Below, piece by piece: positions 19,731 through 58,726 of a DNA stretch of 64,000 nucleotides. Position numbers and translations under genes: made by a program. Below the pieces are notes generated by a model. It saw only the letters and a list, made by a program, of their open reading frames with translations. It did no database searches and was not told the DNA's origin. The number at the start of each line of letters is the position of its first letter. The first letter of the stretch is position 1. Origin of the DNA: an uncultured Pirellulales bacterium (GTDB lineage: Bacteria; Planctomycetota; Phycisphaerae; Sedimentisphaerales; Anaerohalosphaeraceae); the NCBI GenBank assembly GCA_964628195.1, contig CAZVPF010000002.1:100078-164077 (forward strand), written 5' to 3'.

Positions 19731-20774
19731 ATGTTTTATATAGCTAAATCAAATCACAATATTTATACCGGCTTTTCAAATTACGAAGAATTCAACCAGC
19801 AAGACAGAAAAATTCGCGCAGAGTCAGAGTTAGAAAAGTGGGGACAAGAGGCTGATATTTTCAGAAAATATCGTCTAAAATGGAAAAAAGCCGCTGAAGA
19901 AGATTTTCTGCCTGAGCATCCTCTAAATGTGGACATTGAGCTTTCCGATATTTGCAACCTGAGATGCAAGATGTGTGCGCAGGGCATGGGAACAGTTCGA
20001 GGAGCGGGTTTTATGAGTAATGATATTGTTTGTAATATCATTGACCAATGTGCCCAAACAGGTGTTTATTCGATTAAGTTCAATTGGCGAGGTGAGGCTA
20101 CGCTAAATCCATTCCTGCCCGAAGCGATCAGCTATGCAAAGAAAAAGGGTATTCTTGAAGTGCAGATCAACACCAACGGACTTCCTTCACAAAAAGATAT
20201 TATCATTGAATGCGCTGAGAATGGGCTTGACAGGGTCATTTTCTCGGTTGACGGGTTCTCAAAACAGACCTATGAAAGTATCCGAATAAACGGCAGTTAT
20301 GAGCGGCTGCTTGAAAATATTCACAATCTTATTGACTGGAAAAAAAATTCTGCAGGTTCAAAGCCCCATGTAAGGGTTCAAATGGTACGTACCAAACAAA
20401 ATGCACATGAAGTGGAAGATTTTATCGAATACTGGCAGCAGCTGGTTGACGATGTGCGGATAAGTGATGTTATGGATCGCGGGCAAGGCGGAGATCTCAC
20501 CGTGGCAGACCAGGTCGTTACGGGAAGACGAAGGTGTCCACAACCTTTCCAGAGACTTACGATCGGCAGGGACTGCAGGGTTAGCCCCTGCTGCGCAGAC
20601 TGGGACCAGGAATTTATTCTTGGCGATATTCGTCAAAACACATTGATGGAGATGTGGCAGTGTGAGATGATCAATGATTTACGCGAAAAACTCAGAAATA
20701 TACAGCATCACAAGATTAAAATTTGCAGAAGCTGTCCTGTTAAAGAAAGTTACATTTGGCGAAAAATAAAGTAA
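19731..20774 (+). CDS. radical SAM / SPASM-domain enzyme
   Basis: CX3CX2C motif DICNLRCKMC. The C-terminal region is Cys-rich (RRRCPQPF...VSPCCADW...KICRSCP), as in SPASM/twitch auxiliary-cluster domains. Confidence 0.85.
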   Translation: MFYIAKSNHNIYTGFSNYEEFNQQDRKIRAESELEKWGQEADIFRKYRLKWKKAAEEDFLPEHPLNVDIELSDICNLRCKMCAQGMGTVRGAGFMSNDIVCNIIDQCAQTGVYSIKFNWRGEATLNPFLPEAISYAKKKGILEVQINTNGLPSQKDIIIECAENGLDRVIFSVDGFSKQTYESIRINGSYERLLENIHNLIDWKKNSAGSKPHVRVQMVRTKQNAHEVEDFIEYWQQLVDDVRISDVMDRGQGGDLTVADQVVTGRRRCPQPFQRLTIGRDCRVSPCCADWDQEFILGDIRQNTLMEMWQCEMINDLREKLRNIQHHKIKICRSCPVKESYIWRKIK

Positions 20775-23700: not shown

Positions 23701-23893
23701 TCTGGAAAGAGAGTTTATTTATGAAGAAGCTGGAGGAATTCACTGCATACGGTTTGATTCCTATCAGCGATACGGATCAATGCTGAGTGGCAAAATCGGA
23801 CATATAGTTATGGACCGTCTGAGCGTTAGAAAAGCCGAGTGTGAAATTGACTTTGAGATGCTTGAAATGTTATTTAAAAAGAGCGTTAAATGA
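20756..23893 (+). CDS. four-domain fusion: NeuB-family sugar-acid synthase (with SAF) + SpsF/PseF-like cytidylyltransferase + GT2 glycosyltransferase + NeuA-like (degenerate) cytidylyltransferase domain
   Basis: aa 5-330: IIAEIANAHQG...GADAVKFQ...LGYSDH plus a SAF-like tail. aa 334-560: ILAVVVARSDSSRLPGK...VTGDDLLIDP. aa 594-800: VSVYIVNHNY...IIIDDGSTDDS...RLDADD. aa 824-1040 is NeuA-like and ends ECEIDFEMLEMLF. TTG start, 19 nt overlapping the upstream gene; one uninterrupted ORF. Confidence 0.8.
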   Translation: MAKNKVKIIAEIANAHQGNPELALELARASIEAGADAVKFQVYFAEELLVGTHSRFEHFKNQSFSEDDWDKIFEKVCKFGSEVYADVFGAKAIAVAAKYDLDGLKIHSSDLTNTSLLNKAAKYKRKLFLAVGGSTILEIKYALDRLANAGCSSRIVLMHGFQAYPTKVEHAALCRLKMLKEYFGDSVSLGYSDHADAETDFSLFLPLISLPFEVRYIEKHVTLDRASRGVDYYSSYEPDELANFIECVRVAEKAIGDKPLCFSQSEKVYRKTVKKQWVAARDMQKGDVINESDLVMLRTEDSVNGAAYESLIGSKLVCDVAKEQVISRNDIKNRILAVVVARSDSSRLPGKAVCPINGEPAISHLLNRLERAKDKGFLDTIAFCTTTEPSDDKLVTIASKHSCFVYRGSVEDVLARMMLAIDDHHDHNIVLRVTGDDLLIDPDYLHKTIEHHLKSNAHYTDAKQLPSGTEVEVFDSEILKLIYELSHDSSGSEYLTNYIVSNADQFHLASLPVPGRHAKNYRLTLDTKQDYEVIKNILEYFESIGLKYDYTLDDICEYFENYPKAQAANRTVRQKTTPLTVDTRINWGNYTRSPLVSVYIVNHNYGSYIKQAIDSTLNQKFRDFEVIIIDDGSTDDSRKVIECYRNNPRVSVVYQENKGLNVTCNIALKLSKGKYIMRLDADDYLDENALLVMVERLERQENAAIIFPDYYIVDRDGNILSLERRHDFSQVELLDQPAHGACSLIRKSCLLEAGGYNEKYNCQDGYDLWFKMTRDYRVTNVNLPLFYYRRHDKNLTLKEDRLLFTRHELIKEHTAEYNINNKKHLCILPIRAFPDGNSLAVRPFAGSSLLDLTLAQIRESENVTQTVVTSPDNKVLDIAGKYDSDLVLTLDQRPVDLSGYNTRIEQTVNYLLERYFADIEFDTITIVNYEYPFRKPIYIDKAINTLYLYNVDAVIAVEQKNANYYQHYGNGLVPFKTNTELNLEREFIYEEAGGIHCIRFDSYQRYGSMLSGKIGHIVMDRLSVRKAECEIDFEMLEMLFKKSVK

Positions 23894-24903
23894 ACTGTTT
23901 TAAGGGAAAATACGGTCCTTATATTATTGCCGAGATAGGCGGCAATCATGAAGGAGATTTTGAGTATGCAAAACGGCTGACAGAGCTTGCCGTAAGGTCC
24001 GGTGCCGATGCGGTTAAATATCAGTTATACACCGGCGATTCCCTTGTCAACAGGCTTGAGGATTTGGATCGCAACAAACATTTTAAAAAATTTCAGTTGA
24101 GAGACGAGCAGTATATCGAACTTGCTGAGATTTGCAGCTCCTTTGGCGTCACGTTTATGGCTTCAGTATGGAACATCGATGCTTTTGATTTTATCGATCC
24201 TTACATGAAAGTATATAAGATCGGGTCGGGTGACTTGACCGCTTACAACGTTATTAAACGCACGGTCGAAACAGGAAAGCCGATAATTATGTCCACTGGC
24301 CTTTCCACAATGACTGAAGTTCTCGAAACTGTTAAGTTTATTACTGGGCTTGATAAAAGCTATATCACAGACAGGAAACTGGCACTGATGCAGTGTTCGG
24401 CTATGTATCCTATACCGGATGAAGATGCAAATTTGAATGTTATGCTCTCATTGAGAGAAAAGACTTCTCTGCCTGTAGGCTATTCCGATCACACTTTAGG
24501 AACTGATGCACTTGAGACGGCTGCTGCGATGGGGGCTGAAATCCTTGAGATGCATTTTACAGACACCAGGCAGCACAAAACTTTCAGGGACCATAAGATC
24601 GCATTAACAGCCCCTGAGATAGAAAACTTGATTGAAAAGATTAAAAAAATATATTTGCTCCAGGGAAACTACGATAAAAAGCCGGTAACTTCCGAAATTC
24701 AGGCAGGTCATGTCATTTCTTTTCGGCGTGGGGTTTATCCGCTGACAGATTTACCTGCGGGCCATAAGATTGATAAAACTGACCTTGTGACTTTAAGGCC
24801 TTGTCACGGGATCGGAGCAAATCACTTTTATGAAATTGTAGGCAAAACTTTGAAAATAGATGTAAAAAAGCTTCAGCTTTTAGGATGGAATATGTTTGAT
24901 TAA
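23890..24903 (+). CDS. NeuB-family nonulosonic-acid synthase (NeuB/PseI/LegI-like) with SAF domain
   Basis: Canonical YIIAEIGGNHEGDFEYAKRL...GADAVKYQ...VGYSDHTLG motifs and a C-terminal SAF-like region. ATGA overlap with the upstream fusion gene. Confidence 0.9.
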   Translation: MNCFKGKYGPYIIAEIGGNHEGDFEYAKRLTELAVRSGADAVKYQLYTGDSLVNRLEDLDRNKHFKKFQLRDEQYIELAEICSSFGVTFMASVWNIDAFDFIDPYMKVYKIGSGDLTAYNVIKRTVETGKPIIMSTGLSTMTEVLETVKFITGLDKSYITDRKLALMQCSAMYPIPDEDANLNVMLSLREKTSLPVGYSDHTLGTDALETAAAMGAEILEMHFTDTRQHKTFRDHKIALTAPEIENLIEKIKKIYLLQGNYDKKPVTSEIQAGHVISFRRGVYPLTDLPAGHKIDKTDLVTLRPCHGIGANHFYEIVGKTLKIDVKKLQLLGWNMFD

Positions 24904-27100: not shown

Positions 27101-28087
27101 ATGTCAGTTTTCTTTCACATCGGCATGGGCAAAGCCGGGTCAACTTATTTGCAGCAGCAGGTCTTTCCTAATCTCAAAGGGATAACTTATGTCGATCATT
27201 TCCGATATGACAATCCAGTCAGCAGTATTTTGCTCAAACTGTATTATGAGCAAAACCCATGGAAGTCGAATTCGACAGAAGACAAAGAGAAAGCGAATTT
27301 ATTTTTAACTTCTGTTGAGAACAAGCTTTTCAGCTGGGAAAGCATTGTTGGAAACCCGTACGCTAATTTTCATAATCATTTTCTGCTTGCAGATGCGCTC
27401 AAGGAAATTTGCCCTGAGGGGAAGATTATACTTATAATTAGAAAGCAGGACGATTATATTCATTCTCAGTATATGCAGGCTGTTCAAATGGGTTCGGCAT
27501 TTAGCATACGTTATTTTATGAATTACAGCAGCGGTAATTTCGGCACATACACCCCGCCGCCCTGGAAGAAGGCAAATCTTGACGTAAGAATATTAAACTA
27601 TATGAATTTTCTTGACACTTACATTAAGAGATTTGGTAAAGAGAATGTCTTGGTTCTGCCATTTGAACTGATGAAAGAGAATCCGAAAACATTTATTAAA
27701 AAAATTGAAGCATTTACCGGCAGTACCTATAGTGAAGAAAGCTCACAGAAGTTATACGGCATACATAATAAAAGTTATTCTCTGCTTTCATATTATATCG
27801 CAATTATTACTAACGGAATAACCGACCCAACATGTCCTTCTGTGATAAGGTTTGTCAGGAACATCCTGTCTAAGCTGTTTTCAATATGTACTCAATGTTC
27901 CGGCAGAAAGAAGTCTTCTTTTGGCCTTCGTCATGTTCTTCAAAACGGTCTCGATAGAGTTTTTTATATCAGGCCCAATCTTTTAAGCTCCGAACAGCGA
28001 AAGGCAATACTGTCTTTTCATAAAGAATCCAATAAACAGTTGGATGCTTTATATGGTCTTGAACTCAAGAAATACGGTTATTACTGA
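27101..28087 (+). CDS. sulfotransferase-like protein
   Basis: N-terminal 5'-PSB-like loop FFHIGMGKAGSTYLQ and a 3'-PB-like LIIRKQDDYIHSQY, matching PAPS-dependent sulfotransferase motifs. Motif-level evidence only. Confidence 0.55.
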   Translation: MSVFFHIGMGKAGSTYLQQQVFPNLKGITYVDHFRYDNPVSSILLKLYYEQNPWKSNSTEDKEKANLFLTSVENKLFSWESIVGNPYANFHNHFLLADALKEICPEGKIILIIRKQDDYIHSQYMQAVQMGSAFSIRYFMNYSSGNFGTYTPPPWKKANLDVRILNYMNFLDTYIKRFGKENVLVLPFELMKENPKTFIKKIEAFTGSTYSEESSQKLYGIHNKSYSLLSYYIAIITNGITDPTCPSVIRFVRNILSKLFSICTQCSGRKKSSFGLRHVLQNGLDRVFYIRPNLLSSEQRKAILSFHKESNKQLDALYGLELKKYGYY

Positions 28088-28097: not shown

Positions 28098-29945
28098 ATG
28101 TGCGGTTTTACGGGTATAGTTTACTCCGATTCATCCCGGACCATCGACCCTGACACCTACACTCGGTTGACGGAGATTCTTTCTCATCGTGGACCGGACA
28201 ATCTGGGCTGTTTCAGGGATGATAGAATCGACTTGATACACCATCGCCTTTCTATTATTGACCCGACCGACCAGGCCAATCAGCCAATGAAGGACCCGAA
28301 TACAGGAAATGTCGTAGTTTTTAACGGCGAAATATATAACTATAAAGAACTTAAGTCTCAGCATAATGACATTCACTGGCATACAAATTCTGACACAGAG
28401 GTTATACTTAAGTTATACCAACGACTGGGTAAAAGTTTTGTTAATAAGCTTAATGGGATTTTTGCTTTTGCAATTTATGATAATGTGCAAAAATGTGTTT
28501 TACTGTATCGCGACCGTTTCGGGATAAAACCCCTGCATTATATTAACACACAATCTGGGTTCGCGTTTTCTTCCGAAATCAAACCGCTGCTTCAGCTTAT
28601 TCGGCCTGAATATGACCGAACTGTTATTTTTGATTACCTTGAGTATGGACGCTTGGCACATGACCAGCGGACCTTCTTTAGAGGTGTCTGCAGTCTCAAA
28701 CCGGCCCATTATATGAAGTATGACTTTGAAAAAGGAAGTATCTCCACAGTCAGGTATTGGGACATAAAAGACGACAACTCTTTGAGTAACTTATCGAATG
28801 AGCAGATAGTGGAAAGGACGTATACGGAACTTCAAAAAGCTATACGCCTTAATATGGTAAGTGATGTCGAAGTGGCAGTCAGTTTAAGCAGTGGGGCCGA
28901 TTCAACGCTTATTCTGAGACTTGCTCAGCAGCAAACTGCACAAATAAAGGCTTTCACATTCGGCTTTGAAGAGGATGCCTACGACGAAGTGAGCCGTATA
29001 AAAGACCAAGATAGCCTAAAGGGTATCGAATTGCATCCGGTCTATCTCAGGCCCGGTCAAATGCTGGAGCTGCTGAAGCAGGCCGTCTACTACTTTGAAA
29101 CACCTTTAGGAGGACTAGGCACTTTATCGGCATACAATATGATGAAAGAGGTCCGGCGAAAGGGAATCAAGGTGATGTTGGCTGGTGAGGGTGCGGATGA
29201 GATATTCGGCGGATATCAATATTATTTCCCTGCATACTTTAAAGACCTGGAGTACGACAATGAGTTGCTGTATAGAGAAGTGGAAGATTATGCCAAAGCA
29301 CACGGGATCAAAATGAAACCTTTTTGCCAGGCTTATAATGAGTTGATCAAAACAGTCAACTCAAAAACTGTGCTGGCGCCTGATGGCACCGGTTCTTCAA
29401 ACAGCCATGCAAGTTCGGATTTAAGGGCTGAGTTTAAGCAAGACGCTTTAGTCTCTGGTCCGGCCATATTTAAAAGCTGTCTTATTTGTGAAATGTACCG
29501 GGACCTTACAGAAAAGAAGCTGCCGAAACTGTTGCATTTTCAGGACCGAGCAGGAATGGCCGGCGGCATTGAAACAAGGGTTCCTTATCTGGACCATAAC
29601 CTTGTAGAGTTTATTTATGCTTTGGGTAACCGTTGCAAAATATATCGGGGACAAAGCAAGTATTTATTGAAGGCCGTGCTTAAGCGTTATTTTGATTATA
29701 CAGAACCTAAAAAGACAAAACATTATGTGGCAACCCCTCAACGGGAATGGCTGAAAACTACGTCTCTTGCAAAGGAGATACTGGAAACATTGCGCTTTGG
29801 CTGGCTTGTTGAAGAGGGACTTATAGACTTTAAGTTGTTCGAAAGGGATTATAACGCATATATATCTCAGCCGGAACTTGGGAATTCCTTTTTTGTATGG
29901 AAGCTTATCAACCTTGAGTATCTTTTGGGACAAAAATGGAATTAG
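28098..29945 (+). CDS. asparagine synthase (glutamine-hydrolysing) family amidotransferase, glycan-locus paralog
   Basis: N-terminal nucleophile MCGFTGIV, Ntn-amidotransferase body, PP-loop VSLSSGADST, and a 615-aa length. Confidence 0.9.
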   Translation: MCGFTGIVYSDSSRTIDPDTYTRLTEILSHRGPDNLGCFRDDRIDLIHHRLSIIDPTDQANQPMKDPNTGNVVVFNGEIYNYKELKSQHNDIHWHTNSDTEVILKLYQRLGKSFVNKLNGIFAFAIYDNVQKCVLLYRDRFGIKPLHYINTQSGFAFSSEIKPLLQLIRPEYDRTVIFDYLEYGRLAHDQRTFFRGVCSLKPAHYMKYDFEKGSISTVRYWDIKDDNSLSNLSNEQIVERTYTELQKAIRLNMVSDVEVAVSLSSGADSTLILRLAQQQTAQIKAFTFGFEEDAYDEVSRIKDQDSLKGIELHPVYLRPGQMLELLKQAVYYFETPLGGLGTLSAYNMMKEVRRKGIKVMLAGEGADEIFGGYQYYFPAYFKDLEYDNELLYREVEDYAKAHGIKMKPFCQAYNELIKTVNSKTVLAPDGTGSSNSHASSDLRAEFKQDALVSGPAIFKSCLICEMYRDLTEKKLPKLLHFQDRAGMAGGIETRVPYLDHNLVEFIYALGNRCKIYRGQSKYLLKAVLKRYFDYTEPKKTKHYVATPQREWLKTTSLAKEILETLRFGWLVEEGLIDFKLFERDYNAYISQPELGNSFFVWKLINLEYLLGQKWN

Positions 29946-31273
29946 TTAAAACAGGTAATTACATAAAGGATATCGAGTCAAAACATTTTGACAAAATCAC
30001 CAAGCTGAATTTTGGAAAATTCAATGTTTGGCAAATTTACAGAAACTTTCTTATATATAGATTTATGAAAGCAAAAAACTCTTCACAAAAACCGGCTTCC
30101 AAAAGAACTGAAAGTTTGATTAGTTTCTTTTTTCAAATGTATAAAAAAAGGAAGTATCTGAAGAATAAACATATATTATATTCGACTTCTGCGAATTATG
30201 ATAAAAAGGAAGGCGAAAGACTTGCCTCAACGGTTCTTATGAGTTTAGCCAACGAGATCGGTGAGGATAAAGTTTATGTTATTGCAACTGATAAGTATGA
30301 TATTGAACAGCACGAATCCTTTCCAAAGATTGAATTTAATGACTTTACACTTAATAAAATGCGCTTTTCTCCTTTTATTTGTGTTTTTTTATTTCCCGCC
30401 ATATTCCGGCATTTCAGAGCGCTGAAAAACTTTTTAGATGTCAGTTTTTCCAAAGTTGCAATTCTGCTCGCCGGTTTTTTTGAAAAGCATCTTTATTATA
30501 ATATAATGTTGTGGATCATTAAGCCCGCAAGTCTGTTTTTTTACAGGTCTTCATATGGAAGCGAGGCGTTAATATCTGCTGCAAAGGCTCAAGGTATAAA
30601 AGTGTATGAATACCAGCACGGACAGTTGTACAAAGAGCATTATGGATATAATTTTTGCAGATCACTGCTTGGAATTAAAAACAAGATGATTCTTCCGGAC
30701 AAATTACTTTTATACGGGGAGTATTGGAAAGAAGTTTTGAAAGAAGAAGGTTTTTTCGATGATAAAGATGTGATTGTGTGTGGTCATCCGACCCTGCACG
30801 ATGCAGGCAAGATAGATTTTGATATAAATTATGAACAGATAGCGGTATTTTCCTCGCCTTATGCTGCCGAAAAGTTAATAAAATTTATCGATCGTTATAT
30901 AAATAATTCAGATTATGCCTGTGATTATCAGTGGATAATCAAATGCCATCCCCGCGAAAATAAGCAACTATGGCAGGAACTTGCTGATAAGCATCAACAA
31001 GTTCAGGTCATATCTAAAAGCACTTATGATATATTGAATTCGGTGAAAATTATTTTATCAGCTTCCCCTTCTATAATATATGAATCGACTTATTTTGGAA
31101 ATTCTGTATACGCTTTTTTTCCGGGTGTTGACCTTGATAATTCGCAAAGCTGGGCCTTTCCTGAATGTAACAGGATTGAAGAAGGCTTTCTGGGCCATTT
31201 TGAAAAAAACAAACAAGTGGATGTTTCCGAAAAATACTATAAGGGACTTGCTCTCCAACAAATATTTTCTTAA
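29936..31273 (+). CDS. hypothetical protein (possible GT-B-like transferase)
   Basis: 445-aa ORF coupled to its neighbours by a 10-nt overlap upstream. I recognised no confident family. It contains EEG (LKEEGFF) and two HP dipeptides (CGHPTL, IIKCHPRENK), reminiscent of bacterial sialyltransferase D/E-D/E-G and HP motifs. Confidence 0.5.
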   Translation: MELVKTGNYIKDIESKHFDKITKLNFGKFNVWQIYRNFLIYRFMKAKNSSQKPASKRTESLISFFFQMYKKRKYLKNKHILYSTSANYDKKEGERLASTVLMSLANEIGEDKVYVIATDKYDIEQHESFPKIEFNDFTLNKMRFSPFICVFLFPAIFRHFRALKNFLDVSFSKVAILLAGFFEKHLYYNIMLWIIKPASLFFYRSSYGSEALISAAKAQGIKVYEYQHGQLYKEHYGYNFCRSLLGIKNKMILPDKLLLYGEYWKEVLKEEGFFDDKDVIVCGHPTLHDAGKIDFDINYEQIAVFSSPYAAEKLIKFIDRYINNSDYACDYQWIIKCHPRENKQLWQELADKHQQVQVISKSTYDILNSVKIILSASPSIIYESTYFGNSVYAFFPGVDLDNSQSWAFPECNRIEEGFLGHFEKNKQVDVSEKYYKGLALQQIFS

Positions 31274-31297: not shown

Positions 31298-32026
31298 ATG
31301 ATTTTCAAGAAACTAAAAAATCATATTTGCAATTACAACCTTAATCGTGCTTATTTCAAAAAATTTGACGCCTCTGTCAGCGGCAATTTTTTAAGAAAAA
31401 AAGATCTTGTAAAAGACAGCATAAATATCGGTAAAAAGTCGCTGGTCTATAAGAACAGGATATCCGGTAAAGTAAGTATTGGAAGTTATTGTTCCATATC
31501 CCACGCCATTATCAGGGCCTCTGATGAAACCGAGGTGAGGATTGGCTCTTACTCGATAATACAGGGAGGACAGTCTCAGATCGTCTCTAAAATTAATGAT
31601 ATAACAATAGGGAAATTTTGCACTATTGGCTTTGGAGCTGTAATTATTGGTTACAGCCATCGAACTGACACTTACACCTATTCACTGCTCGACAAGCGGA
31701 TTTTGGGTGGTAGAACTGCGAATTTCTGTTCATTTGGTGATATACAAATTGGCCATGACTGCACCATCGGCATGTATTCCTTTATCATGCCCGGAGTCTC
31801 TTTAGGTAACGGGTGTATCGTCCTGCCGAACAGCGTAGTGACTTCCTCTTTTGAGCCGTATACGATTATTGCCGGAAATCCAGCTGTTAAAGTCGGCATT
31901 CGTTTTAGTCAAAAGAAGATTGATTATTTGAACACAATTAACTGGTATGAATGGCCGCATGAAAAAATCGTTTCAAATATTTACAAACTCAATAAGAGAG
32001 TCAGAGAAAGTAATGAATTTGATTGA
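31298..32026 (+). CDS. left-handed beta-helix (hexapeptide-repeat) acyl/acetyltransferase
   Basis: Repeated [LIV]-G-x-x-x-x hexapeptides (IGSYCSI, IGSYSII, IGKFCTIGFGAVI, IGHDCTIGMYSFI, LGNGCIVLPNSVV). It also has a GNPAVKVGIRF...INWYEW tail like the Vat/CatB-type subfamily. Confidence 0.8.
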   Translation: MIFKKLKNHICNYNLNRAYFKKFDASVSGNFLRKKDLVKDSINIGKKSLVYKNRISGKVSIGSYCSISHAIIRASDETEVRIGSYSIIQGGQSQIVSKINDITIGKFCTIGFGAVIIGYSHRTDTYTYSLLDKRILGGRTANFCSFGDIQIGHDCTIGMYSFIMPGVSLGNGCIVLPNSVVTSSFEPYTIIAGNPAVKVGIRFSQKKIDYLNTINWYEWPHEKIVSNIYKLNKRVRESNEFD

Positions 32027-32038
32027 AAGAGCGGCCCT

Positions 32039-33460
32039 ATGATCCGGGTTGAAAAAAATTATTTGTTTACACATCAGGACCAGCTTTCATTTGCAGAGCT
32101 TTCAGGTGATTTTAATCCGGTTCATATTGACCCTCTTTATGCCCGCCGTACTTTGTTCGGCAAACAAATAGTTCACGGAATCAATCTTTTATTAAAAGCT
32201 TTGGATTATGCTGTTGAAACTTGCACAGCCGGCAAGTCTTTCAATATTATAAATGCTCAATTTCTTAAACCTGTTAAGATTAATGAAAATGTTGTATTCT
32301 CTTGTAATCTTGCTCAAGATACAATTCAGGTCGAAATATTACAGGCAAGTACAAAAGCAGCGTCTTTTAACATACTTTTGGCCGATTTCCAAGTCGATCT
32401 TGATATTCCGAACAAATCTGACGAAAGTATTGAGTGCAAGGCTATCGACAGTGATACGGCAGAGTATGCAAACGGAATACTAAGACTATACCTAAATAAG
32501 CATGCCGCTGAATTGCTTTTTCCTAATCTTTACCGAATAGCGCCATTAGTTCAGATTGCCGAGATTTTGGCAGCAACAAGGCTTGTAGGAATGAATTGTC
32601 CCGGTAAGAACTCTATATTTAATGGCCTTGACGTTCATTTCAACGGGAGTCCAAGTGACAGTGGTGAGCTTCGCTGGAATGTCTCTACCTGCAGCCGACG
32701 CTTCTCAAGATTAAATATAGAAATAGCCGGGCCAACCCTCAGGGGCAGAATTGATACCTTCTTAAGGCCCGAACCGTTAAAACAGCCGGACTTGAAGAAA
32801 CTTTGTAAAATGGTCAAGCCATTTGAGTTTGCCGGACAGAAGGCTCTTGTTATCGGCGGATCAAGAGGACTTGGTGAAGTGACCGCTAAGCTTCTAGCGG
32901 CTGGGGGTGCTGACGTAAAAATCACTTATTTCATGGGTGAAATGGAAGCTAATGAGATTGTTAAGGAAATATCAGACTGGGGCCAAGCTGCTGAATGCTT
33001 CAAGTTCGATGTTTTAACACCTGGTGCCTGTTCTACGGTGCTTCATAACTTTCGAAACACCACGACGCTTTACTACTTCGCCACACCGTTTATTTTCGAT
33101 GCCGTTAAAGGTGATTTTTCTGCCAAACTGTTTCAGCGTTTTTGCAATTATTACGTAAGCGGTTTCTTTAATACTGTCAAAATACTCATGGAAAATTGCC
33201 AAAACCTGCAGTATATTTTTTATCCGTCTTCGATCGCTGTCGAGGAATATCCATCAAATATGTGTGAGTATGCGGCTGCCAAATCATCAGGAGAGTTTAT
33301 TTGTAACTTTCTGGCGAAGAAGTTTACTAACCTTATTGTATATAAACCAAGGATCTCGAGGATGGCGACTGACCAGACAGCCAGCCTTTTGCCTGTTAAT
33401 AATCAGGACCCGGGTCCTGTCATTCTTGAGCATTTAAGATGCATGAAAAAATTAAAATGA
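32039..33460 (+). CDS. MaoC-like (hot-dog) dehydratase fused to short-chain dehydrogenase/reductase
   Basis: N-terminus: FAELSGDFNPVHIDPLYARRTLFGKQIVHG (MaoC motif). C-terminus: ALVIGGSRGLGEVTAKLLAAGGADV (SDR glycine motif) and the catalytic YAAAK. Confidence 0.8.
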   Translation: MIRVEKNYLFTHQDQLSFAELSGDFNPVHIDPLYARRTLFGKQIVHGINLLLKALDYAVETCTAGKSFNIINAQFLKPVKINENVVFSCNLAQDTIQVEILQASTKAASFNILLADFQVDLDIPNKSDESIECKAIDSDTAEYANGILRLYLNKHAAELLFPNLYRIAPLVQIAEILAATRLVGMNCPGKNSIFNGLDVHFNGSPSDSGELRWNVSTCSRRFSRLNIEIAGPTLRGRIDTFLRPEPLKQPDLKKLCKMVKPFEFAGQKALVIGGSRGLGEVTAKLLAAGGADVKITYFMGEMEANEIVKEISDWGQAAECFKFDVLTPGACSTVLHNFRNTTTLYYFATPFIFDAVKGDFSAKLFQRFCNYYVSGFFNTVKILMENCQNLQYIFYPSSIAVEEYPSNMCEYAAAKSSGEFICNFLAKKFTNLIVYKPRISRMATDQTASLLPVNNQDPGPVILEHLRCMKKLK

Positions 33461-34359
33461 GTGAAGCTGTAAGTTCACTTGTAGACCGGATAGTCTCAAA
33501 AAATAAGCTTCAGAAAAATATGATTTTAACCGGCTTAAAATCGCTTTCCGGAGATAATCTCTGTGACTTTGAAGCTTACATTAACTTTTGTTCCAAAAAA
33601 GGAATGAATCACAAATATCTATCAGATTGTTACGAACTGATAACCCGGGCGAGTTTTCGTGAACAAGTGTATTTTAAGCGCCATAAAAAATACAGGTACA
33701 GCAGCTATAGTGAAGTTTCTAATTCAGTGTATTTCAATGAAGACTATATGTTGCGTTATATGACAGGGCTGGCGTTAACATCTTTTTTATGGCCCAACCA
33801 TGTGGCAATGATGAACTATTTTCATGAGAATTTGCCGCGTGATAAAGCCGGACTGTACCTTGAAATCGGACCTGGACACGGGTTTTATATGATGAATGCT
33901 ATGCGGTTGACTTCTTTCTCCCATTTTCTTGCAGTTGATATAAGCCCCACAAGCGTTAATATGACTAAAAGCATACTCAGCGATTCATCTTTCGGTAAGT
34001 TTGACAGGTATGAGATAATACAGGGTGATTTCCTTGAATTCCCGTCCACTGATAAATTTGACGTCATTGTTATGGGAGAGGTTCTTGAACATGTCGAAAG
34101 CCCGGTTTCTTTTCTTAAAAAAGCTCACTGTTGCTGCAAAGAAAATGGTTTTATTTATATAACAACAGCAATCAACGCTCCAGCAGTGGACCATATATAC
34201 CTTTACCGGTCATCGGAGCAGATTGAGACTCAAGTTAAATCATGCGGTTTTGAGGTATTAAATAAACTTGTTTGCCCTTATTATGGAACTTCTTTAGAAG
34301 AAAGCATACAAAATGATCTGCCTGTTAATATAGCACTCGTTCTTCAAAAGAGTAACTAA
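33457..34359 (+). CDS. class I SAM-dependent methyltransferase
   Basis: Motif I YLEIGPGHGF, then LAVDISPTSVNM and FDVIVMGEVLEHVESP. ATG 33457 forms an ATGA overlap with the upstream stop; the ORF-track start is 33439. Confidence 0.75.
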   Translation: MSEAVSSLVDRIVSKNKLQKNMILTGLKSLSGDNLCDFEAYINFCSKKGMNHKYLSDCYELITRASFREQVYFKRHKKYRYSSYSEVSNSVYFNEDYMLRYMTGLALTSFLWPNHVAMMNYFHENLPRDKAGLYLEIGPGHGFYMMNAMRLTSFSHFLAVDISPTSVNMTKSILSDSSFGKFDRYEIIQGDFLEFPSTDKFDVIVMGEVLEHVESPVSFLKKAHCCCKENGFIYITTAINAPAVDHIYLYRSSEQIETQVKSCGFEVLNKLVCPYYGTSLEESIQNDLPVNIALVLQKSN

Positions 34360-36105
34360 ATGAAGGAAATGAAATACAGTGAAATTATAAAACAAAACGC
34401 TTCTCTTGGTCAACAGATGAACACTGACAAGTTCCCCATCAGTGTCCTGTCAAATATTATGGTGGACCAAATCAAGGATATTGGAGAATATTTTCTCAAA
34501 ACAAACGGCCTCAATGCGGAGTTGCTGGTCGGCGACTATGACAATATCCTGCAGGAATCACAAAAAACAGCGGATTGTAGAGTCGCGGTAATCTTTTGGG
34601 AAGCCGCCAATCTGCTCGATGGATTTCAATACCGGGCAGATTCCATGAAAAAAGAACAGCTCGAGGAACTTTTAAATAAAACTGTAAATGAAATTGATTT
34701 TGTTTTGAAATCTCTTGCCGATAAATCGCTTGTAATCTTCAATTCCTTCTCAAGTAATGTTTTTAATTCTACGCTGCTTGAAAGAAACAATTTTGATCAC
34801 TTCTGCGATTCACTTAATTCTTATCTTAAAAAATACAGTGCTGCAAATCTGCGAGTGATCGATATTGACCGGATCATATCAAATCTGTCTGTCGCCGAAA
34901 GTTCTGATATGAGATTTTATTACTCTTCAAAATCCCTGTACACGGTTGATTTCTTCAAAGCTTACGTGTCTGATGTCTTTCATTATATTTTGTCAGCATG
35001 TGGAAAGACCCGAAAGGCCTTGATATTCGACTGTGACAACACTCTTTGGAAGGGAATTCTGGGGGAGGACGGAATTGATAATATTGAAATGTCAGGGTAC
35101 ACCCCAGCCGGAGCTGTATATAAGGAAATACAGTATATCGCCCTTCAGCTTAAGCAAAAAGGGGTGATTTTAGGCATTTGCAGTAAGAATAATCCGCAAG
35201 ATGTCGATCAGGTGTTTGCCGAACATCCCTCCATGACTCTAAGAGAAGAAGATATTGCCATCAGGAAAGTGAACTGGAATGATAAAGTGTCTGGGTTGAA
35301 ACAGATTGCTGAGGAGCTTAACATAGGCCTTGACAGTCTTGTTTTTGTGGACGATTCAAAGTTCGAGATAGAGATGGTAAATGAAATGCTTCCACAAGTG
35401 CACACCATATTAGTGCCGAAAAAACTATCGGATTACCCTGCGGTTTTAAGAAGTTCATGCCGCCTGTTCTTAAGTGAATCACAGACGCATGAAGACAGGA
35501 TGAAAACGAAGATTTATAGTGTACAGGCTGTAAGAAAAAAAGAAAGCCTTAAATTTGAAAATGTTGAAGATTATTTAAAGTCGCTTGAACTTCGATTAAC
35601 TGTTAAAACGGACGATAAGAACTCTATTCAAAGGCTGGCACAGCTTACGCAAAAAACAAATCAGTTTAACTTGACCACAAAACGGTATACTGTTTCTGAT
35701 ATTTCAAAATTCATGAATTCTGACGACCACATAGTGTTTAGTTTTGAACTCTCGGACAAATACGGAAGTTACGGGATTACCGGTCTGAGCATAGTTCAGA
35801 TTGACCTTGAGAATTTGAATGCTGATATCGACACATTTTTAATGAGTTGCAGGGTAATAGGACGAAACGTCGAGTTTAGTTTTTTCCGTTTCATCGTTGA
35901 CCGCCTTAAAGAAAAAAAAATTCAGCAAGTTAAATCGCATTATATTCAAACCCTTAAAAATAAACAGGCAGAAAACTTCTTTGAGAATTGCGGGTGCGGA
36001 CTTGTTAATGAAACTGCGAAAGAAAAACATTACAAAATGTTTTTAGACCAACCGGTGCTGAACACTTTTGATTACATAGGAGTTGTAAATGGAAGACAGG
36101 ATTAA
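34360..36105 (+). CDS. FkbH-like HAD-IIIC family protein with C-terminal GNAT-like domain
   Basis: HAD motif I ALIFDCDNTLWKGILGEDG, then ICSKNN and VFVDDS, matching the FkbH-like subfamily. The C-terminal ~150 aa look acyltransferase-like (GSYGITGL...MSCRVIGRNVE). Confidence 0.85.
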   Translation: MKEMKYSEIIKQNASLGQQMNTDKFPISVLSNIMVDQIKDIGEYFLKTNGLNAELLVGDYDNILQESQKTADCRVAVIFWEAANLLDGFQYRADSMKKEQLEELLNKTVNEIDFVLKSLADKSLVIFNSFSSNVFNSTLLERNNFDHFCDSLNSYLKKYSAANLRVIDIDRIISNLSVAESSDMRFYYSSKSLYTVDFFKAYVSDVFHYILSACGKTRKALIFDCDNTLWKGILGEDGIDNIEMSGYTPAGAVYKEIQYIALQLKQKGVILGICSKNNPQDVDQVFAEHPSMTLREEDIAIRKVNWNDKVSGLKQIAEELNIGLDSLVFVDDSKFEIEMVNEMLPQVHTILVPKKLSDYPAVLRSSCRLFLSESQTHEDRMKTKIYSVQAVRKKESLKFENVEDYLKSLELRLTVKTDDKNSIQRLAQLTQKTNQFNLTTKRYTVSDISKFMNSDDHIVFSFELSDKYGSYGITGLSIVQIDLENLNADIDTFLMSCRVIGRNVEFSFFRFIVDRLKEKKIQQVKSHYIQTLKNKQAENFFENCGCGLVNETAKEKHYKMFLDQPVLNTFDYIGVVNGRQD

Positions 36106-36322
36106 AAAAGTTATGTCTGAAGTGCTTGGGCTTGACATTGCCAAAATTAATAAAGACACTTCGGTCGATACGGTAGATACATGGGATTCACTTAGGCAGA
36201 TGAATCTTATTGTCGCACTGGAAGATGAATTTGATTTCGAATTTGATGAAGATGAAATGACAGAATTAACCGGTTTTACAATTATTGTAAATTCGGTCTC
36301 AAAAAAAGTTGCTTGCCGATAA
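36089..36322 (+). CDS. acyl carrier protein
   Basis: 77 aa and acidic. The phosphopantetheine-attachment context is DTWDSLRQMNLIVALEDEF (DSL). It overlaps the FkbH-like gene by 17 nt. Confidence 0.8.
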   Translation: MEDRIKKVMSEVLGLDIAKINKDTSVDTVDTWDSLRQMNLIVALEDEFDFEFDEDEMTELTGFTIIVNSVSKKVACR

Positions 36323-36323
36323 G

Positions 36324-38105
36324 ATGCTCCATTCTTTTAAAAGATTTAACAGTTTCGCAGAAGTTTCAAAAGCTCATTTAGCAGTTGTTTTTTTGCTGAA
36401 TTTTGCAGAAGCTTTTTTCGCTGTGTCAGGCCTTGCGTTGCTTTATCCTTTGATCCGTTTTCTGCAGGTTGGAAAAGAAACTTTTGTAAACGACATAGGC
36501 CAAAGCAGCCTCAAATACATCGAAAAGTTGTCTGATTTTTTGGGGATCGAAATCTCTCTCGGCTTTCTTGTAATTTGCGCGGTTTTGCCTTTGCTTTTAC
36601 AGCAGATGTTCAGGTTCCTGAAAGAATATGTTGCAATACAAATTCAAAATAATTCTGTATGCCGTATGCAAAGGAAACTTATTAACTCAATGTTCAGTGT
36701 CGATGTCGAGTTTTTCTCACGCACACAGCTTGGTGAGCTGGGCAATGCCGCGACAACCGCCACCTTCAGGGCCGGTCTCACGATACAGCAAATAATTAAT
36801 TACTTCAGCAGCATCCTGATTGGCACGGTTTATTTTATCGTAATGTTGGTTATATCATGGAAGCTTACGCTTGTTTCAGTTTTAATCATAGGGTTGATTC
36901 CTCTGCTTACAAATAGGCAGTCTCACGCAATAAGACAGAGGAGCAGGCTTGTCGAGTCAATAAACCGTGACCTCCATGCTTACCTTATTGACAGGCTGCG
37001 TTCTATTAAGAGGATGCTTCTTTCTAACATGTCAGATGTTGAAATGGATTATTTCTCCAGGATGGCACAGAAAAGAGAAAAGACGATTGTACACACCCTG
37101 ACCCTGATTTCTCTTATAAATAATACTCTTGAGCCTGCCATGATGGCTGTGGCCCTGGCGATTATTTTTGTTGGGGTTAAAGTAATTCATATTGAATATG
37201 CTGTCCTGTTCCTGTTTTTGTATATCGTGACTAAAACCAAGCCTGCGATAAACAGCGTTGTAAAGTCTAAAAACCAGGCATTAATATACATGAGAAGTTT
37301 TGATGTAGTTGAGGATGTTTACCGTAGGATTTCAAGCGCAACGACAATCAAAAATGGGACCAAAGAACTTAATAAACTTGAAAAGTATATTAAAATTGAC
37401 AAATTAACTTTTGCTTATGATAAAAAAGATCCGCTTTTTGATAACTTATCTGTTTCTTTTATGGCCGATCAAACGACAGCGCTTGTTGGAAGGTCCGGCT
37501 CCGGCAAAACAACGCTGCTCGACCTTATTCTACGTTTCCGCGAGCCGCAAAGCGGCAGTATAATGTTTGATGACACCGAACTTAAAGAAATCAAGCTGGA
37601 AAGCTTGCGAAGCAGAATTGGCATGCTCTCGCAGGATATTATGCTTTTCCACGGAACCATCATCGATAATATTACTTACGGGCTTAAAAATTTAACAGAA
37701 GATCAGGTACGAAATGCATGTCGTATGGCCCATGTTGATGACTTTGTTGAGCACCTCCAGGAAGGCTATGAAAGTCATATCGGTGAGTGTGGCGCTAAAC
37801 TGTCAGGCGGCCAAAAACAGAGACTGGCACTGGCGCATATTTTTCTGAAGAACCCTGAGATCATTATTCTTGATGAACCGACCAGCGCGCTGGACGGTGA
37901 AACTGAGTTAATCATCAAAAATGCAATTGATAAGATGAAAGGCACAAAAACTATTATTATCGTAGCGCATAGGTTATCGACAATAAGGAATTCTGATGAT
38001 ATTATTGTGCTCGATAGTGGCCGTGTTTTATCTCGGGGTACATTTGACAAATTGATGGAGGAAAGTGAAGAATTTCGCAAAATGGTGAAATACCAACAGA
38101 TATAG
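36324..38105 (+). CDS. ABC exporter, fused TMD-NBD (MsbA/PglK-like type I exporter)
   Basis: Six N-terminal TM helices, Walker A GRSGSGKTT, signature LSGGQKQR and Walker B IIILDEPTSALD. I prefer ATG 36324, directly after the ACP stop (36320-36322). Confidence 0.9.
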   Translation: MLHSFKRFNSFAEVSKAHLAVVFLLNFAEAFFAVSGLALLYPLIRFLQVGKETFVNDIGQSSLKYIEKLSDFLGIEISLGFLVICAVLPLLLQQMFRFLKEYVAIQIQNNSVCRMQRKLINSMFSVDVEFFSRTQLGELGNAATTATFRAGLTIQQIINYFSSILIGTVYFIVMLVISWKLTLVSVLIIGLIPLLTNRQSHAIRQRSRLVESINRDLHAYLIDRLRSIKRMLLSNMSDVEMDYFSRMAQKREKTIVHTLTLISLINNTLEPAMMAVALAIIFVGVKVIHIEYAVLFLFLYIVTKTKPAINSVVKSKNQALIYMRSFDVVEDVYRRISSATTIKNGTKELNKLEKYIKIDKLTFAYDKKDPLFDNLSVSFMADQTTALVGRSGSGKTTLLDLILRFREPQSGSIMFDDTELKEIKLESLRSRIGMLSQDIMLFHGTIIDNITYGLKNLTEDQVRNACRMAHVDDFVEHLQEGYESHIGECGAKLSGGQKQRLALAHIFLKNPEIIILDEPTSALDGETELIIKNAIDKMKGTKTIIIVAHRLSTIRNSDDIIVLDSGRVLSRGTFDKLMEESEEFRKMVKYQQI

Positions 38106-39069: not shown

Positions 39070-40911
39070 ATGAATAAGACCGATAAAAGCCAGCCTGTTT
39101 TTATTTTTGGCTGTCCTAGGTCGGGCACTACTTTGCTTAGACTGATGCTGACCAGTCACTCCACAGTCTGTATACCCAGCGAAAGTGATTTTTGTATTAA
39201 GATGTTCAGCAAGTGGGGACAACTTATAATAACCGGACAACCGCAGTTGAGGGCGTTTTTAAATGAACTTTATTTAAATGACAAATTTAAAGAATGGGGT
39301 ATAAAAAGAGATGAGTTGCACGATTACCTTATAAAATTATTACCGCTGAATTATGCAAAATGTGTTGAGCAAATATACGTCTGCTATATGAAAAGCAAAG
39401 ACAAAAATGGCATCTGGGGGGACAAAAATCCGGGATACGTATATTCGGTCGATGTTATTTTAAAGCTTTTTCCGCAAGCCAAGTTAATTCATGTTGTACG
39501 GGACGGGCGGGCAGTATTCTTGTCAAATATGCAGGCTAACGCAGCTAAAGGCAGGCATGGACTCAAGGCTGTATTTCCATGTGATGCCTATGGAAGTGCA
39601 TTTAATTGGATTAGGGCTCTTCATGCTGCAAGGAAATTTATATCGTATGAGAATTTTAAAGAAATAAAATATGAGACACTGCTCGAACAACCAAAAGTGA
39701 CTCTTGAAAATTTATGCAGTTTTTTGGGGATTGAATTTGAGGATGCGATGCTCAAATATCATTACAGAAATAAGTCGCAACAGCTTGTTCCGCAACACAG
39801 GTCGGCATGGCACAAAAACACTTTCAAAGAAATTGATTCTACTAGGATAGATGCTTGGAAAAAAAGCCTCAAATCAAAAGACATTTATTTGTTTGAGCTT
39901 TTGGCAGGTAGGTATTTAAGAAAAAACGGGTACAATTGTAAGTTTTCTTTTAATCATCTATTCCAATTCAGGCCAATATTTTTCCGTCACCTTCTGAGGC
40001 TCTTTTATTTGAGTGCCCCATTACCTGAAGGATTTAAACAAAAAATTAAGGTCTTGCGCCATTGGTACTTCTGGCGCAAAGAGATTTCCATAAGAAGCAT
40101 TCGTGAATTTTTTGCAAGATATGGCGGAAATAAAAAACGTTTACCGGGCAATAAGGAACTGATTGTTTTTATGATAGGAATGCCCCGCACCGGAACAAGT
40201 TTAATGAAGAATTTCTTTGGAGACCATAAAGGTCTTGAGATTCAACCTTTTCAAAAAGATGGTTTTTTTGTGTCATGGGAAAAAACAAATAACTCCAATT
40301 CTATATTGATCGACAAGTCAACTCATTATATTCGAAACTTAAACTTGATCCGATCAGCAACTGGTGTCAATGCGGCATTTTGTTGTATTGTAAGAGATCC
40401 TCGTGACCAGCTTATAAGCCTTTTTGAATTTGACCGACATCCTGAGTTGCCAAGAACTAAACTGTTCTGGAATAAATGGGCTAAGCAATATTTAGGTTTT
40501 ATTGAATTTGCAAAAAAACATAGTAACATAAAATGCTTCTTGATCCGATATGAAGACCTTGTGAGCTACCCAGTCGAAAGTAAAAGAACCTTTCTAAAAT
40601 GGATTGGGGTTTTCGAAGGAAATGAAAATATTGAATCAAAATATGAAATTGCTGTTTTAAATGACAGGCAGGATCCTAAAGTGGCTCAACAGTCCTCTGT
40701 AAATAAATCTTCAATCGGCCGTTATAAGGCCACTAAATGCCCGGATCAGTTAGCTATGGTCAATGCGTTTCAGTACAACTCAAAAGCGAAAAAATTAATG
40801 AATCTTTTTGGCTATTCCGACAATGGTCTCGCCGATATAAAAATTATCGGAATACCTAATTTGTTTGTTTTTGAACCTAACTTAAAACCTTCAGAAAAAA
40901 ACGTAACTTAA
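39070..40911 (+). CDS. tandem di-domain sulfotransferase
   Basis: Two complete PAPS-binding motif sets. Domain 1: VFIFGCPRSGTTLLRLM plus IHVVRDGRAVFLS. Domain 2: VFMIGMPRTGTSLMKNF plus CCIVRDPRDQLISL. Confidence 0.75.
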   Translation: MNKTDKSQPVFIFGCPRSGTTLLRLMLTSHSTVCIPSESDFCIKMFSKWGQLIITGQPQLRAFLNELYLNDKFKEWGIKRDELHDYLIKLLPLNYAKCVEQIYVCYMKSKDKNGIWGDKNPGYVYSVDVILKLFPQAKLIHVVRDGRAVFLSNMQANAAKGRHGLKAVFPCDAYGSAFNWIRALHAARKFISYENFKEIKYETLLEQPKVTLENLCSFLGIEFEDAMLKYHYRNKSQQLVPQHRSAWHKNTFKEIDSTRIDAWKKSLKSKDIYLFELLAGRYLRKNGYNCKFSFNHLFQFRPIFFRHLLRLFYLSAPLPEGFKQKIKVLRHWYFWRKEISIRSIREFFARYGGNKKRLPGNKELIVFMIGMPRTGTSLMKNFFGDHKGLEIQPFQKDGFFVSWEKTNNSNSILIDKSTHYIRNLNLIRSATGVNAAFCCIVRDPRDQLISLFEFDRHPELPRTKLFWNKWAKQYLGFIEFAKKHSNIKCFLIRYEDLVSYPVESKRTFLKWIGVFEGNENIESKYEIAVLNDRQDPKVAQQSSVNKSSIGRYKATKCPDQLAMVNAFQYNSKAKKLMNLFGYSDNGLADIKIIGIPNLFVFEPNLKPSEKNVT

Positions 40912-54890: not shown

Positions 54891-54936
54891 CACAACTTTT
54901 CCCAAAACGAACCTGAAAACTAAAACGGAGAACAAA

Positions 54937-56436: not shown

Positions 56437-56455
56437 ATAAAGAACGGAGCAAGCA

Positions 56456-57748: not shown

Positions 57749-57757
57749 CCGGTCAAA

Positions 57758-58714: not shown

Positions 58715-58726
58715 AAGAAAAAGAAA

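Follow-up and report, generated by a model that had tools for sequence, protein, structure and literature searches.

Our analysis of a 64,000-nucleotide stretch of DNA from an uncultured Pirellulales bacterium (assembly GCA_964628195.1, contig CAZVPF010000002.1, positions 100,078 to 164,077; hereafter 'the window') suggests that five adjacent genes within a glycan biosynthesis locus encode a carrier-protein pathway which, independent of any polyketide synthase (PKS), places a small three-carbon (C3) hydroxyacyl group, most likely of the lactyl type, on a surface glycan. We assign this reading a probability of about 0.55. The cassette (Table 1) encodes a hexapeptide acyltransferase, a fusion of a MaoC dehydratase with a short-chain dehydrogenase/reductase (SDR), a methyltransferase dependent on S-adenosylmethionine (SAM), an FkbH-like loader and a dedicated acyl carrier protein (ACP). 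What is new here is the combination of a PKS-free FkbH/ACP unit with (i) a free-standing dehydratase-ketoreductase (DH-KR), (ii) a methyltransferase, and (iii) a transferase of the xenobiotic acetyltransferase (XAT) class, all within a glycan locus that also contains genes for the ulosonic-acid synthase NeuB.

A preliminary description of this region had proposed five co-directional, translationally coupled genes together with a domain assignment for each of them. Both proposals hold: all five open reading frames (ORFs) lie on the forward strand and overlap or nearly so, with junctions of +12, −4 (an ATGA overlap at the methyltransferase start, 33457), 0 and −17 nt, the last being the overlap of the ACP gene with the 3' end of the FkbH gene, and every assignment is backed by Pfam and NCBIfam matches. 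The gene of an ABC exporter follows that of the ACP with a junction of −14 nt. The absence of a PKS or ketosynthase (KS), likewise claimed before, agrees with Pfam scans of the 64-kb window, which detected neither domain in any scanned ORF, nor a condensation or thioesterase domain. Since the gene order of the cassette recurs in unrelated contigs, the arrangement is far beyond chance. A scan for internal promoters and terminators gave no convincing signal, with 5 terminator-like sites versus 8.7 expected from shuffled sequence.

Table 1. Positions of the cassette genes and of further genes of the glycan locus in the window
Feature	Position	Strand	Length	Matches
Hexapeptide acyltransferase	31298–32026	+	242 aa	Hexapep E = 2.6e-13 (Pfam)
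MaoC dehydratase-SDR fusion	32039–33460	+	473 aa	MaoC_dehydratas 1.9e-14; adh_short 2.9e-9
Class I SAM-dependent methyltransferase	33457–34359	+	300 aa (306 aa from alternative start 33439)	
FkbH-like loader	34360–36105	+	581 aa	TIGR01686; HAD-IIIC
Dedicated ACP	36089–36322	+	77 aa	PP-binding E = 1.2e-6
Fused ABC exporter (transmembrane + ATPase)	36309–38105	+		ABC_tran 2.9e-32; ABC_membrane; related to HepA/MsbA/PglK
Polysialyltransferase (PST)-like protein	29936–31273	+	445 aa	Pfam PF07388 E = 6.8e-6
AsnB-type glutamine-dependent amidotransferase	28098–29945	+	615 aa	Asn_synthase 7e-57; GATase; TIGR01536 395.6 bits
Ulosonic-acid supply genes	20756–24903	+	1045 aa (NeuB/cytidylyltransferase/GT2 fusion); 337 aa (separate NeuB paralog)	
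Sulfotransferase	27101–28087			
Sulfotransferase, tandem double domain	39070–40911			

The FkbH-like protein exceeds the curated cutoffs of both the FkbH domain model (NCBIfam TIGR01686; residues 217–547, E = 1.3e-81, 274.2 bits versus 146.65) and the HAD-IIIC model (62.9 bits versus 35.75), which bears out its earlier family assignment. It is composed of an N-terminal α/β domain (residues ∼1–215), a HAD-IIIC phosphatase domain (∼217–370) and a C-terminal domain with GNAT fold (∼400–575). HAD motif I reads D224-C-D226-N-T, and motifs II, III and IV are represented by S275, K309 and D332, respectively; these residues, as well as S496-C497-R498, are invariant in an alignment with 27 homologs exhibiting 47–56% identity. 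Both the catalytic Asp and the putative catalytic Cys, on which the loader function proposed in the preliminary description hinged, are thus kept; C497 presumably corresponds to the catalytic Cys of OzmB. The GNAT-like tail noted before is likewise recovered in an AlphaFold2 (AF2) model (mean predicted local distance difference test score, pLDDT, 81.9), with target-normalised template modelling (TM) scores of 0.65–0.75 against GNAT acetyltransferases. Residues 1–370 superpose with a TM-score of 0.80 on PDB entry 3SLR (sequence match E = 2.3e-34), that is, on the uncharacterised protein BF1531 of B. fragilis, the sole solved relative. The N-terminal domain of ∼215 residues (34360–35005) is present in glycan-locus FkbH proteins and in the BF1531 crystal structure, and missing in PKS-type FkbH of 367 residues. 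Degenerate primers for actinomycete FkbH genes encode the motifs KCLVWDLD(N/D)TLW and ...LTLRTSQMN (PMC3679948), and both have counterparts in the window protein (residues 219–230 and 425–437). The ACP carries its phosphopantetheine site at Ser34 within the motif D33-S34-L35 and is also matched by several ACP models of NCBIfam, so that the earlier identification of a dedicated ACP with a DSL site stands.

The fusion protein consists of a first hotdog domain (residues 1–116; Pfam MaoC_dehydratas, 6–91), a second hotdog domain (∼145–241) and a classical SDR domain (265–473; adh_short, 268–424). The first hotdog contains the hydratase-2 motif S22-G-D24-F-N26-P-V-H29, and the SDR domain exhibits the motifs G273-x3-G277-x-G279 and Y411-x3-K415; D24, N26, H29, the SDR glycine motif, Y411 and K415 are invariant among 38 sequences, which include shorter versions of ∼394 residues. 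The middle segment has no Pfam annotation and adopts the second hotdog fold in the AF2 model (pLDDT 83.2), for which Foldseek returned ketoreductase-type SDRs, double-hotdog MaoC-like dehydratases (5I7N, 4V12) and the dehydratase-enoylreductase-ketoreductase region of a PKS (5BP4). As modelled, the protein is a free-standing DH-KR didomain with intact catalytic residues. Its family is uniform (∼472 aa; more than 2,800 matches, none informatively named), and all three of the closest homologs on long contigs are encoded beside an FkbH-like gene, two of them in the order hexapeptide acyltransferase, MaoC-SDR, FkbH, ACP. The dehydratase fits the MaoC family PF01575 and not the Pfam model of PKS dehydratases. 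Homologs within PKS megasynthases were not seen, all 120 among the matches listed being free-standing (∼461–497 aa); the analogy of the MaoC-SDR protein to lactyl loading modules of PKSs therefore stays functional.

The hexapeptide acyltransferase is a left-handed β-helix (LbH) protein of the XAT (Vat/CatB) class, with VatD and CatB matched in the PDB at E ∼1e-22. It scores below the NCBIfam equivalog cutoffs for Vat (104.4 bits versus 300) and CatB (92.8 bits versus 350) and is thus, as judged from its sequence, related in class to these enzymes while itself being neither. Its putative catalytic residue His121 (G-Y-S-H-R-T-D) aligns with His82 of VatD (G-A-N-H-R-M-D), presumably the catalytic base of that enzyme. 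The match to the NeuD/PglB/VioB family is below cutoff (57.6 bits versus 160.8), that to OatWY (PDB 2WLC) is weak (E = 5.8e-4), and so are NCBIfam matches to LpxA and LpxD. The subfamily is rare, comprising nine full-length relatives. It is presumed that this enzyme moves the ACP-borne acyl group onto the glycan, and its membership in a class of O-acetyltransferases makes O-acylation likelier than N-glyceroylation. The methyltransferase matches Pfam families Methyltransf_23, 12, 31 and 11 (∼1e-15), has an N-terminal extension of ∼120 residues, and gives weak NCBIfam matches to BioC (malonyl-ACP O-methyltransferase) and UbiG. No relative was found by sequence search of the PDB, and no match to the Pfam model of caffeoyl-CoA-type O-methyltransferases was obtained. 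Its sequence and its genomic neighbourhoods point to an accessory tailoring enzyme of FkbH cassettes.

Taken together, these assignments suggest a pathway in four steps. Judged from its family and its intact residues, the FkbH-like enzyme would take a phosphorylated glycolytic C3 acid, canonically 1,3-bisphosphoglycerate (1,3-BPG), remove the 3-phosphate at the HAD site formed by Asp224 and Asp226, and transfer the glyceryl group, via Cys497 in the GNAT-fold domain, onto the ACP, where the phosphopantetheine arm at Ser34 would receive it. FkbH is known to form glyceryl-ACP from 1,3-BPG in the supply of extender and starter units for polyketides (PMC3679948). By analogy, the double hotdog would then dehydrate glyceryl-ACP to enol-pyruvoyl/pyruvoyl-ACP, and the fused SDR, acting as a ketoreductase, would reduce C2 to yield lactyl-ACP. 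Glyceryl-ACP is a 3-hydroxyacyl thioester and hence of the substrate type of MaoC dehydratases. In the PKS counterpart, as He et al. reportedly showed in 2014, glyceryl-ACP is the substrate of the dehydratase and pyruvoyl-ACP that of the ketoreductase. The order DH-KR, methyltransferase, FkbH, ACP is collinear with lactyl-forming modules, and lactyl and 2-methoxypropanoyl products are therefore ranked above glyceroyl. For FkbH-containing PKS loading modules, PMC7901079, citing Zhang et al. 2011, describes the conversion of 1,3-BPG and ACP into lactyl-ACP. In what is the weakest step, the methyltransferase might methylate the free hydroxyl to give 2-methoxypropanoyl-ACP or, alternatively, act on glyceryl-ACP ahead of dehydration. 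Finally, the hexapeptide acyltransferase, with His121 as the base, would hand the ACP-bound acyl group over to a hydroxyl of a sugar, the likeliest acceptor being a NeuB-derived ulosonic-acid residue installed by the PST-like protein. Of the earlier proposal that a modified C3 acyl group is built here and transferred to a sugar, the PKS-independent FkbH/ACP unit in a glycan locus is thus retained, whereas the glyceroyl identity probably gives way to lactyl on the DH-KR precedent.

The FkbH-ACP pair recurs far beyond the window. At least 7,967 homologs of the FkbH-like protein were found at E ≤ 1e-20, many of them full-length (∼580 aa) at ∼50% identity, with records from Omnitrophica/Omnitrophota, Desulfomonile, Marinimicrobia and Calditrichales and one further locus in a metagenome-assembled genome of Thaumarchaeota. 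Using the proteins of the window as queries, we scored 83 related loci. As a source of loci, a profile scan of metagenome contigs was far more productive than a single-protein scan of genome contigs, which returned two. An ACP homolog adjoins the FkbH-like gene in 71 of the 75 loci with enough downstream sequence. FkbH is directly preceded by the MaoC-SDR gene in 13/54 loci, a methyltransferase homologous to that of the cassette (scores up to 312 bits) is encoded within 4.5 kb of FkbH in 13/54, and both are found near FkbH in 6/54. Methyltransferase homologs thus occur near FkbH with and without the MaoC-SDR gene, the arrangement methyltransferase-FkbH-ACP without it being seen in loci L014, L033 and L039. 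Because the ACP is nearly constant, the conserved core consists of FkbH and ACP, while the other three cassette genes represent optional modules for tailoring and transfer. Pfam scans of two genes on each side of FkbH-ACP revealed a recurring set of neighbours comprising SDRs, MaoC proteins, hexapeptide and GNAT acyltransferases, methyltransferases, AMP-binding enzymes, polysaccharide deacetylases, phosphopantetheinyl transferases (PPTases; 6 loci) and FabH-like β-ketoacyl-ACP synthases III (KAS III; 7 loci). The homologous cassettes reside in Wzm/Wzt, exosortase-exopolysaccharide (EPS) and glycosyltransferase-rich loci of several phyla, and the PKS-free FkbH-ACP pairs of glycan loci make up a very large and hitherto unexplored family.

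Among these neighbours, small Glyoxalase_4/VOC proteins are the commonest, with 16 matches upstream and 9 downstream of FkbH-ACP in the related loci; none is encoded in the window. They may be equivalents of Cj1301, the C. jejuni 'epimerase', and possibly invert C2 of glyceryl-ACP. Aminopeptidase-like proteins of the DUF4910/DUF2172/HTH_47 type directly follow FkbH-ACP in four related loci; we take these domains to be the family of Cj1295. With NeuB homologs present in only 4/48 related loci, we rejected a specificity of the entire FkbH family for nonulosonic-acid (NulO) sugars.

Synteny with three loci that encode members of the acyltransferase subfamily (L090, L091 and L092) indicates that the cassette is part of a larger block. 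The order AsnB, PST-like protein, LbH acyltransferase, (methyltransferase), MaoC-SDR, FkbH, ACP is kept in L090 and L091, and in L092 as far as the contig end, which lies inside the MaoC-SDR gene. Identities amount to 50–59% for AsnB, 34–43% for the PST-like protein and 55–59% for the LbH acyltransferase in L090–L092, and to 46–48% for FkbH in L090 and L091, where homologs of the ABC exporter (36–38% identity) are encoded just upstream of AsnB. L092 remains syntenic further back via a sulfotransferase, a radical-SAM/SPASM enzyme and a methyltransferase of 347 residues (61–69% identity) to a NeuB/cytidylyltransferase/GT2 fusion of 1044 residues, with which the locus begins and which has the same architecture as the window's 1045-residue protein. 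Hence, while the cassette proper does comprise the five genes described before, the functional unit reaches upstream to the co-conserved AsnB and PST-like genes: the unit under selection extends back to 28098 and is linked to an acidic sugar activated with CMP and to the putative transferase of that sugar. The window protein itself (20756–23893; a single ORF with TTG start) contains NeuB, SAF, CTP_transf_3 and Glycos_transf_2 domains and a C-terminal PseF-like segment, and thus appears to join an ulosonic-acid synthase, its activating enzyme and a transferase in one polypeptide. The PST-like protein is a candidate ulosonic-acid transferase. Since an LbH acyltransferase gene right after a PST-like gene is reminiscent of the way sialate O-acetyltransferases are paired with polysialyltransferases, we propose O-acylation of the ulosonic-acid residue; this acceptor, suggested by analogy, is the weakest link in our proposal. 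The link to the NeuB product made in the preliminary description accordingly gains some support from NeuB-containing synteny and loses some family-wide, given the scarcity of NeuB near FkbH. In L090, an HMGL-like aldolase/cytidylyltransferase fusion of 769 residues (1175–3484) is found in place of NeuB. Such a replacement of NeuB alongside a retained acyl cassette hints at an acylated sugar that varies from locus to locus. After the ACP gene, relatives encode a cupin and a DUF386 protein (YhcH-like, associated with sialate metabolism), DUF386 being present in both L090 (13156–13638) and L091 (14043–14549).

The preliminary description had favoured a different product, namely glyceroyl- or O-methylglyceroyl-ACP whose acyl group is N-linked to pseudaminic (Pse) or legionaminic (Leg) acid made by NeuB, as in Pse5Am7Gra of Tannerella or dimethylglyceroyl-Pse of Campylobacter. 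The Campylobacter lead is sound: in the flagellin glycosylation locus of C. jejuni, cj1302 has been described as an 'fkbH domain-containing gene', and Pse sugars carrying dimethylglyceric acid (DMGA) are absent in strains 12664, in which cj1302 is a pseudogene, and 12661, which lacks cj1301, a gene 'annotated as an epimerase' (PMC7099621). The genetic basis of N-glyceroylation of Tannerella Pse was said in 2017 to remain 'a major challenge' (PMC5378307). Within the literature searched, the statement that the link between such cassettes and glyceroyl groups is biochemically undefined thus appears accurate, although the association itself had already been noticed for Campylobacter. Further points in favour of this product are that cj1295, which is needed for DMGA-Pse, has aminopeptidase-like counterparts after FkbH-ACP in the four loci mentioned above, that cassettes with a methyltransferase and without MaoC-SDR exist, and that both NeuB genes are located 7–10 kb upstream of the cassette in the window. 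However, the scanned window ORFs encode no DegT aminotransferase, no PseB/LegB-type dehydratase (Polysacc_synt_2), no PseG/LegG and no Cj1295-like protein (DUF4910/DUF2172), and both NeuB proteins are below the NeuB and PseI equivalog cutoffs of NCBIfam, so that a 5,7-diamino acceptor for N-glyceroylation is not encoded in the window. Moreover, the transferase belongs to the Vat/CatB class of O-acetyltransferases, and a catalytically intact dehydratase-ketoreductase between transferase and FkbH would be left without a role. We therefore consider N-glyceroylation of Pse or Leg unlikely here.

Two other readings appear less probable still. In an oxidative pathway resembling that to methoxymalonyl-ACP, the SDR would oxidise the C3 hydroxyl of glyceryl-ACP and the methyltransferase would methylate the 2-hydroxyl, so that a 2-methoxy-3-oxo or hydroxymalonyl-type unit reaches the glycan. 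In the canonical cassette, FkbH and ACP are indeed accompanied by a dehydrogenase and an O-methyltransferase (PMC3679948), the window likewise offers an oxidoreductase and a methyltransferase, and an SDR combined with a MaoC hydratase represents the activities of peroxisomal MFE-2, which the fusion protein weakly matches. This pathway would nevertheless leave the dehydratase idle despite its invariant catalytic Asp and His, the methyltransferase gave no match to a caffeoyl-CoA-type model, and neither an FkbK-type 3-hydroxyacyl-CoA dehydrogenase nor an FkbI-type FAD acyl-CoA dehydrogenase is encoded in the scanned window ORFs, which renders it improbable in our view. Of the readings considered we give least credence to a role outside the glycan, in which the cassette would make a lipid head group or a small metabolite derived from the ACP for export by the ABC transporter, or to an FkbH-like substrate other than phosphoglycerate. 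The overlap of the exporter and ACP genes, the N-terminal ∼215 residues of the FkbH-like protein, which PKS-type FkbH lacks and which have no assigned function, and the fact that FkbH products of PKS pathways feed small molecules are consistent with such a role. Against it stand the position of the cassette midway in a co-directional array of 30 glycan genes, the glycan settings of homologous cassettes in several phyla, and the lack of any KS, condensation or thioesterase domain in the window.

Several points also weigh against the lactyl-type O-acylation that we favour. The MaoC-type dehydratase is not homologous, as judged from the domain models, to the PKS-type dehydratase of lactyl-forming modules, the SDR could instead oxidise the C3 hydroxyl in the manner of FkbK, and the methyltransferase could target either the acyl-ACP or a sugar, at O or at C. 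XAT-class enzymes normally take acetyl-CoA, so that an acyl-ACP donor is an assumption here, and no PPTase gene is present in the window. A literature search combining FkbH with polysaccharide, O-antigen, capsule and NulO retrieved no characterised FkbH enzyme of a glycan locus. With regard to the acceptor, NeuB homologs occur near FkbH in just 4/48 related loci, and the PST-like protein is called from a single Pfam match (26.3 bits versus a cutoff of 23.3), a sequence search of the PDB having given no meaningful match. Finally, the survey drew on the 80 best among at least 589 matches, which biases the co-occurrence fractions towards close relatives.

The array in which the cassette resides extends from 14581 to 50227, with 30 co-directional genes separated by −58 to +104 nt and a G+C content of 0.36–0.45, as compared with 0.46–0.53 in the flanks. 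Its GT2/GT4 glycosyltransferases number eight if the GT2 domain of the NeuB fusion is included, and it further encodes a Wzy-like protein, an initiating transferase (Bac_transf) and tailoring enzymes that include one B12-radical-SAM and two radical-SAM/SPASM enzymes, the sulfotransferases listed in Table 1 and six methyltransferases, that of the cassette included. The glycan product is thus probably heavily methylated and sulfated, and AsnB probably amidates a glycan carboxylate. The ABC exporter scores 373 bits with the HepA_fam_ABC model, which is under the model cutoff, and likely exports or flips the glycan or a lipid-linked precursor. The array opens with two ORFs that overlap by 4 nt (14581–16772; 212 and 518 aa) and for which Pfam returned nothing at E ≤ 0.001. 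Outside the array, two MttB-family methyltransferase genes lie beside an ABC transporter with an OpuAC glycine-betaine-binding protein (53355–60346), which suggests a system for demethylation of glycine betaine or quaternary amines as is typical of anaerobes; a second, shorter AsnB is encoded thereafter (60364–61863).

One may speculate, albeit tentatively and with considerably less confidence than we place in the pathway itself, that FkbH-ACP pairs of glycan loci represent a widespread modular route by which Bacteria and Archaea divert 1,3-BPG into C3 acyl decorations, that the accessory genes set the product, and that in the window this product is an O-lactyl or O-(2-methoxypropanoyl) group on a sialic-acid-like residue. 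If so, an accessory code would emerge in which the core without accessory genes yields glyceroyl, a methyltransferase O-methylglyceroyl, a VOC 'epimerase' the other enantiomer, and a dehydratase-ketoreductase lactyl; the product of the window would be a bacterial analogue of animal O-lactyl sialic acids, and the missing genetic basis would be supplied for N-glyceroyl-Pse in Tannerella and dimethylglyceroyl-Pse in Campylobacter. FkbH chemistry has so far been studied solely as a supply of polyketide building blocks, while small acyl groups on surface sugars affect antigenicity, recognition by phages and lectins, and charge. Should the first step be common to thousands of PKS-free cassettes in glycan loci, a few accessory genes might turn out to predict the C3 acyl group carried, which would aid genome-based prediction of glycan structures, serotype genetics and glyco-engineering. 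The window offers a defined sub-architecture, linked to NeuB, AsnB and a PST-like gene, for which heterologous expression is feasible.

Among characterised systems, the DH*-KR*-FkbH-ACP loading modules of trans-acyltransferase PKSs, as for FR901464, combine the same activities in the same order for the same proposed conversion of 1,3-BPG into lactyl-ACP; BryA of the bryostatin pathway contains a further module of this kind making a lactyl starter. In the window, however, (i) the proteins are separate, (ii) the dehydratase is a MaoC-type double hotdog, (iii) a methyltransferase gene is inserted, (iv) there is no downstream KS, and (v) the product would go to a hexapeptide acyltransferase in a glycan locus and not to a PKS. 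The methoxymalonyl-ACP cassettes (FkbG/H/I/J/K; BafAI-AV) share with the window clustered genes for an FkbH-like protein, an ACP, an oxidoreductase and a methyltransferase, as well as glyceryl-ACP formation as the first step. They differ in that their FkbH has 367 residues instead of 581, their methyltransferase belongs to another subfamily, a 3-hydroxyacyl-CoA dehydrogenase and a FAD acyl-CoA dehydrogenase are present, and a PKS consumes the product.

The cj1295-cj1304 region of C. jejuni NCTC 11168 likewise places an FkbH-domain gene, the presence of which correlates with a C3 acyl decoration, in a nonulosonic-acid locus, and presumably also contains genes for an ACP, a methyltransferase, a GNAT protein and a FabH-like protein, companions that recur around the FkbH-ACP pairs surveyed here. 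There, however, the modification is a 2,3-di-O-methylglyceroyl group N-linked to Pse and requires the aminopeptidase-like Cj1295, whereas in the window genes of the Cj1295-like, Pse-pathway and VOC 'epimerase' kinds are absent, and a dehydratase-ketoreductase and an XAT-class transferase are encoded instead. With the sialate O-acetyltransferases NeuO, OatWY and NeuD the window shares an LbH acyltransferase whose gene directly follows a PST-like gene and whose locus also encodes NeuB and a CMP-sugar synthetase. Those enzymes use acetyl-CoA, while the window acyltransferase has a dedicated ACP pathway attached, which implies a larger acyl group. Decoration of glycans by way of a dedicated or housekeeping carrier protein is well known from LpxA/LpxD, which show that hexapeptide acyltransferases can take acyl-ACP donors, and from NodF/NodA, D-alanylation via DltC and the RfbK-N tetronate pathway of Vibrio cholerae O1. 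Compared with systems of the LpxA, NodF and DltC type, the acyl group in the window would be drawn from a glycolytic intermediate by an FkbH loader, and not from fatty-acid synthesis or adenylation.

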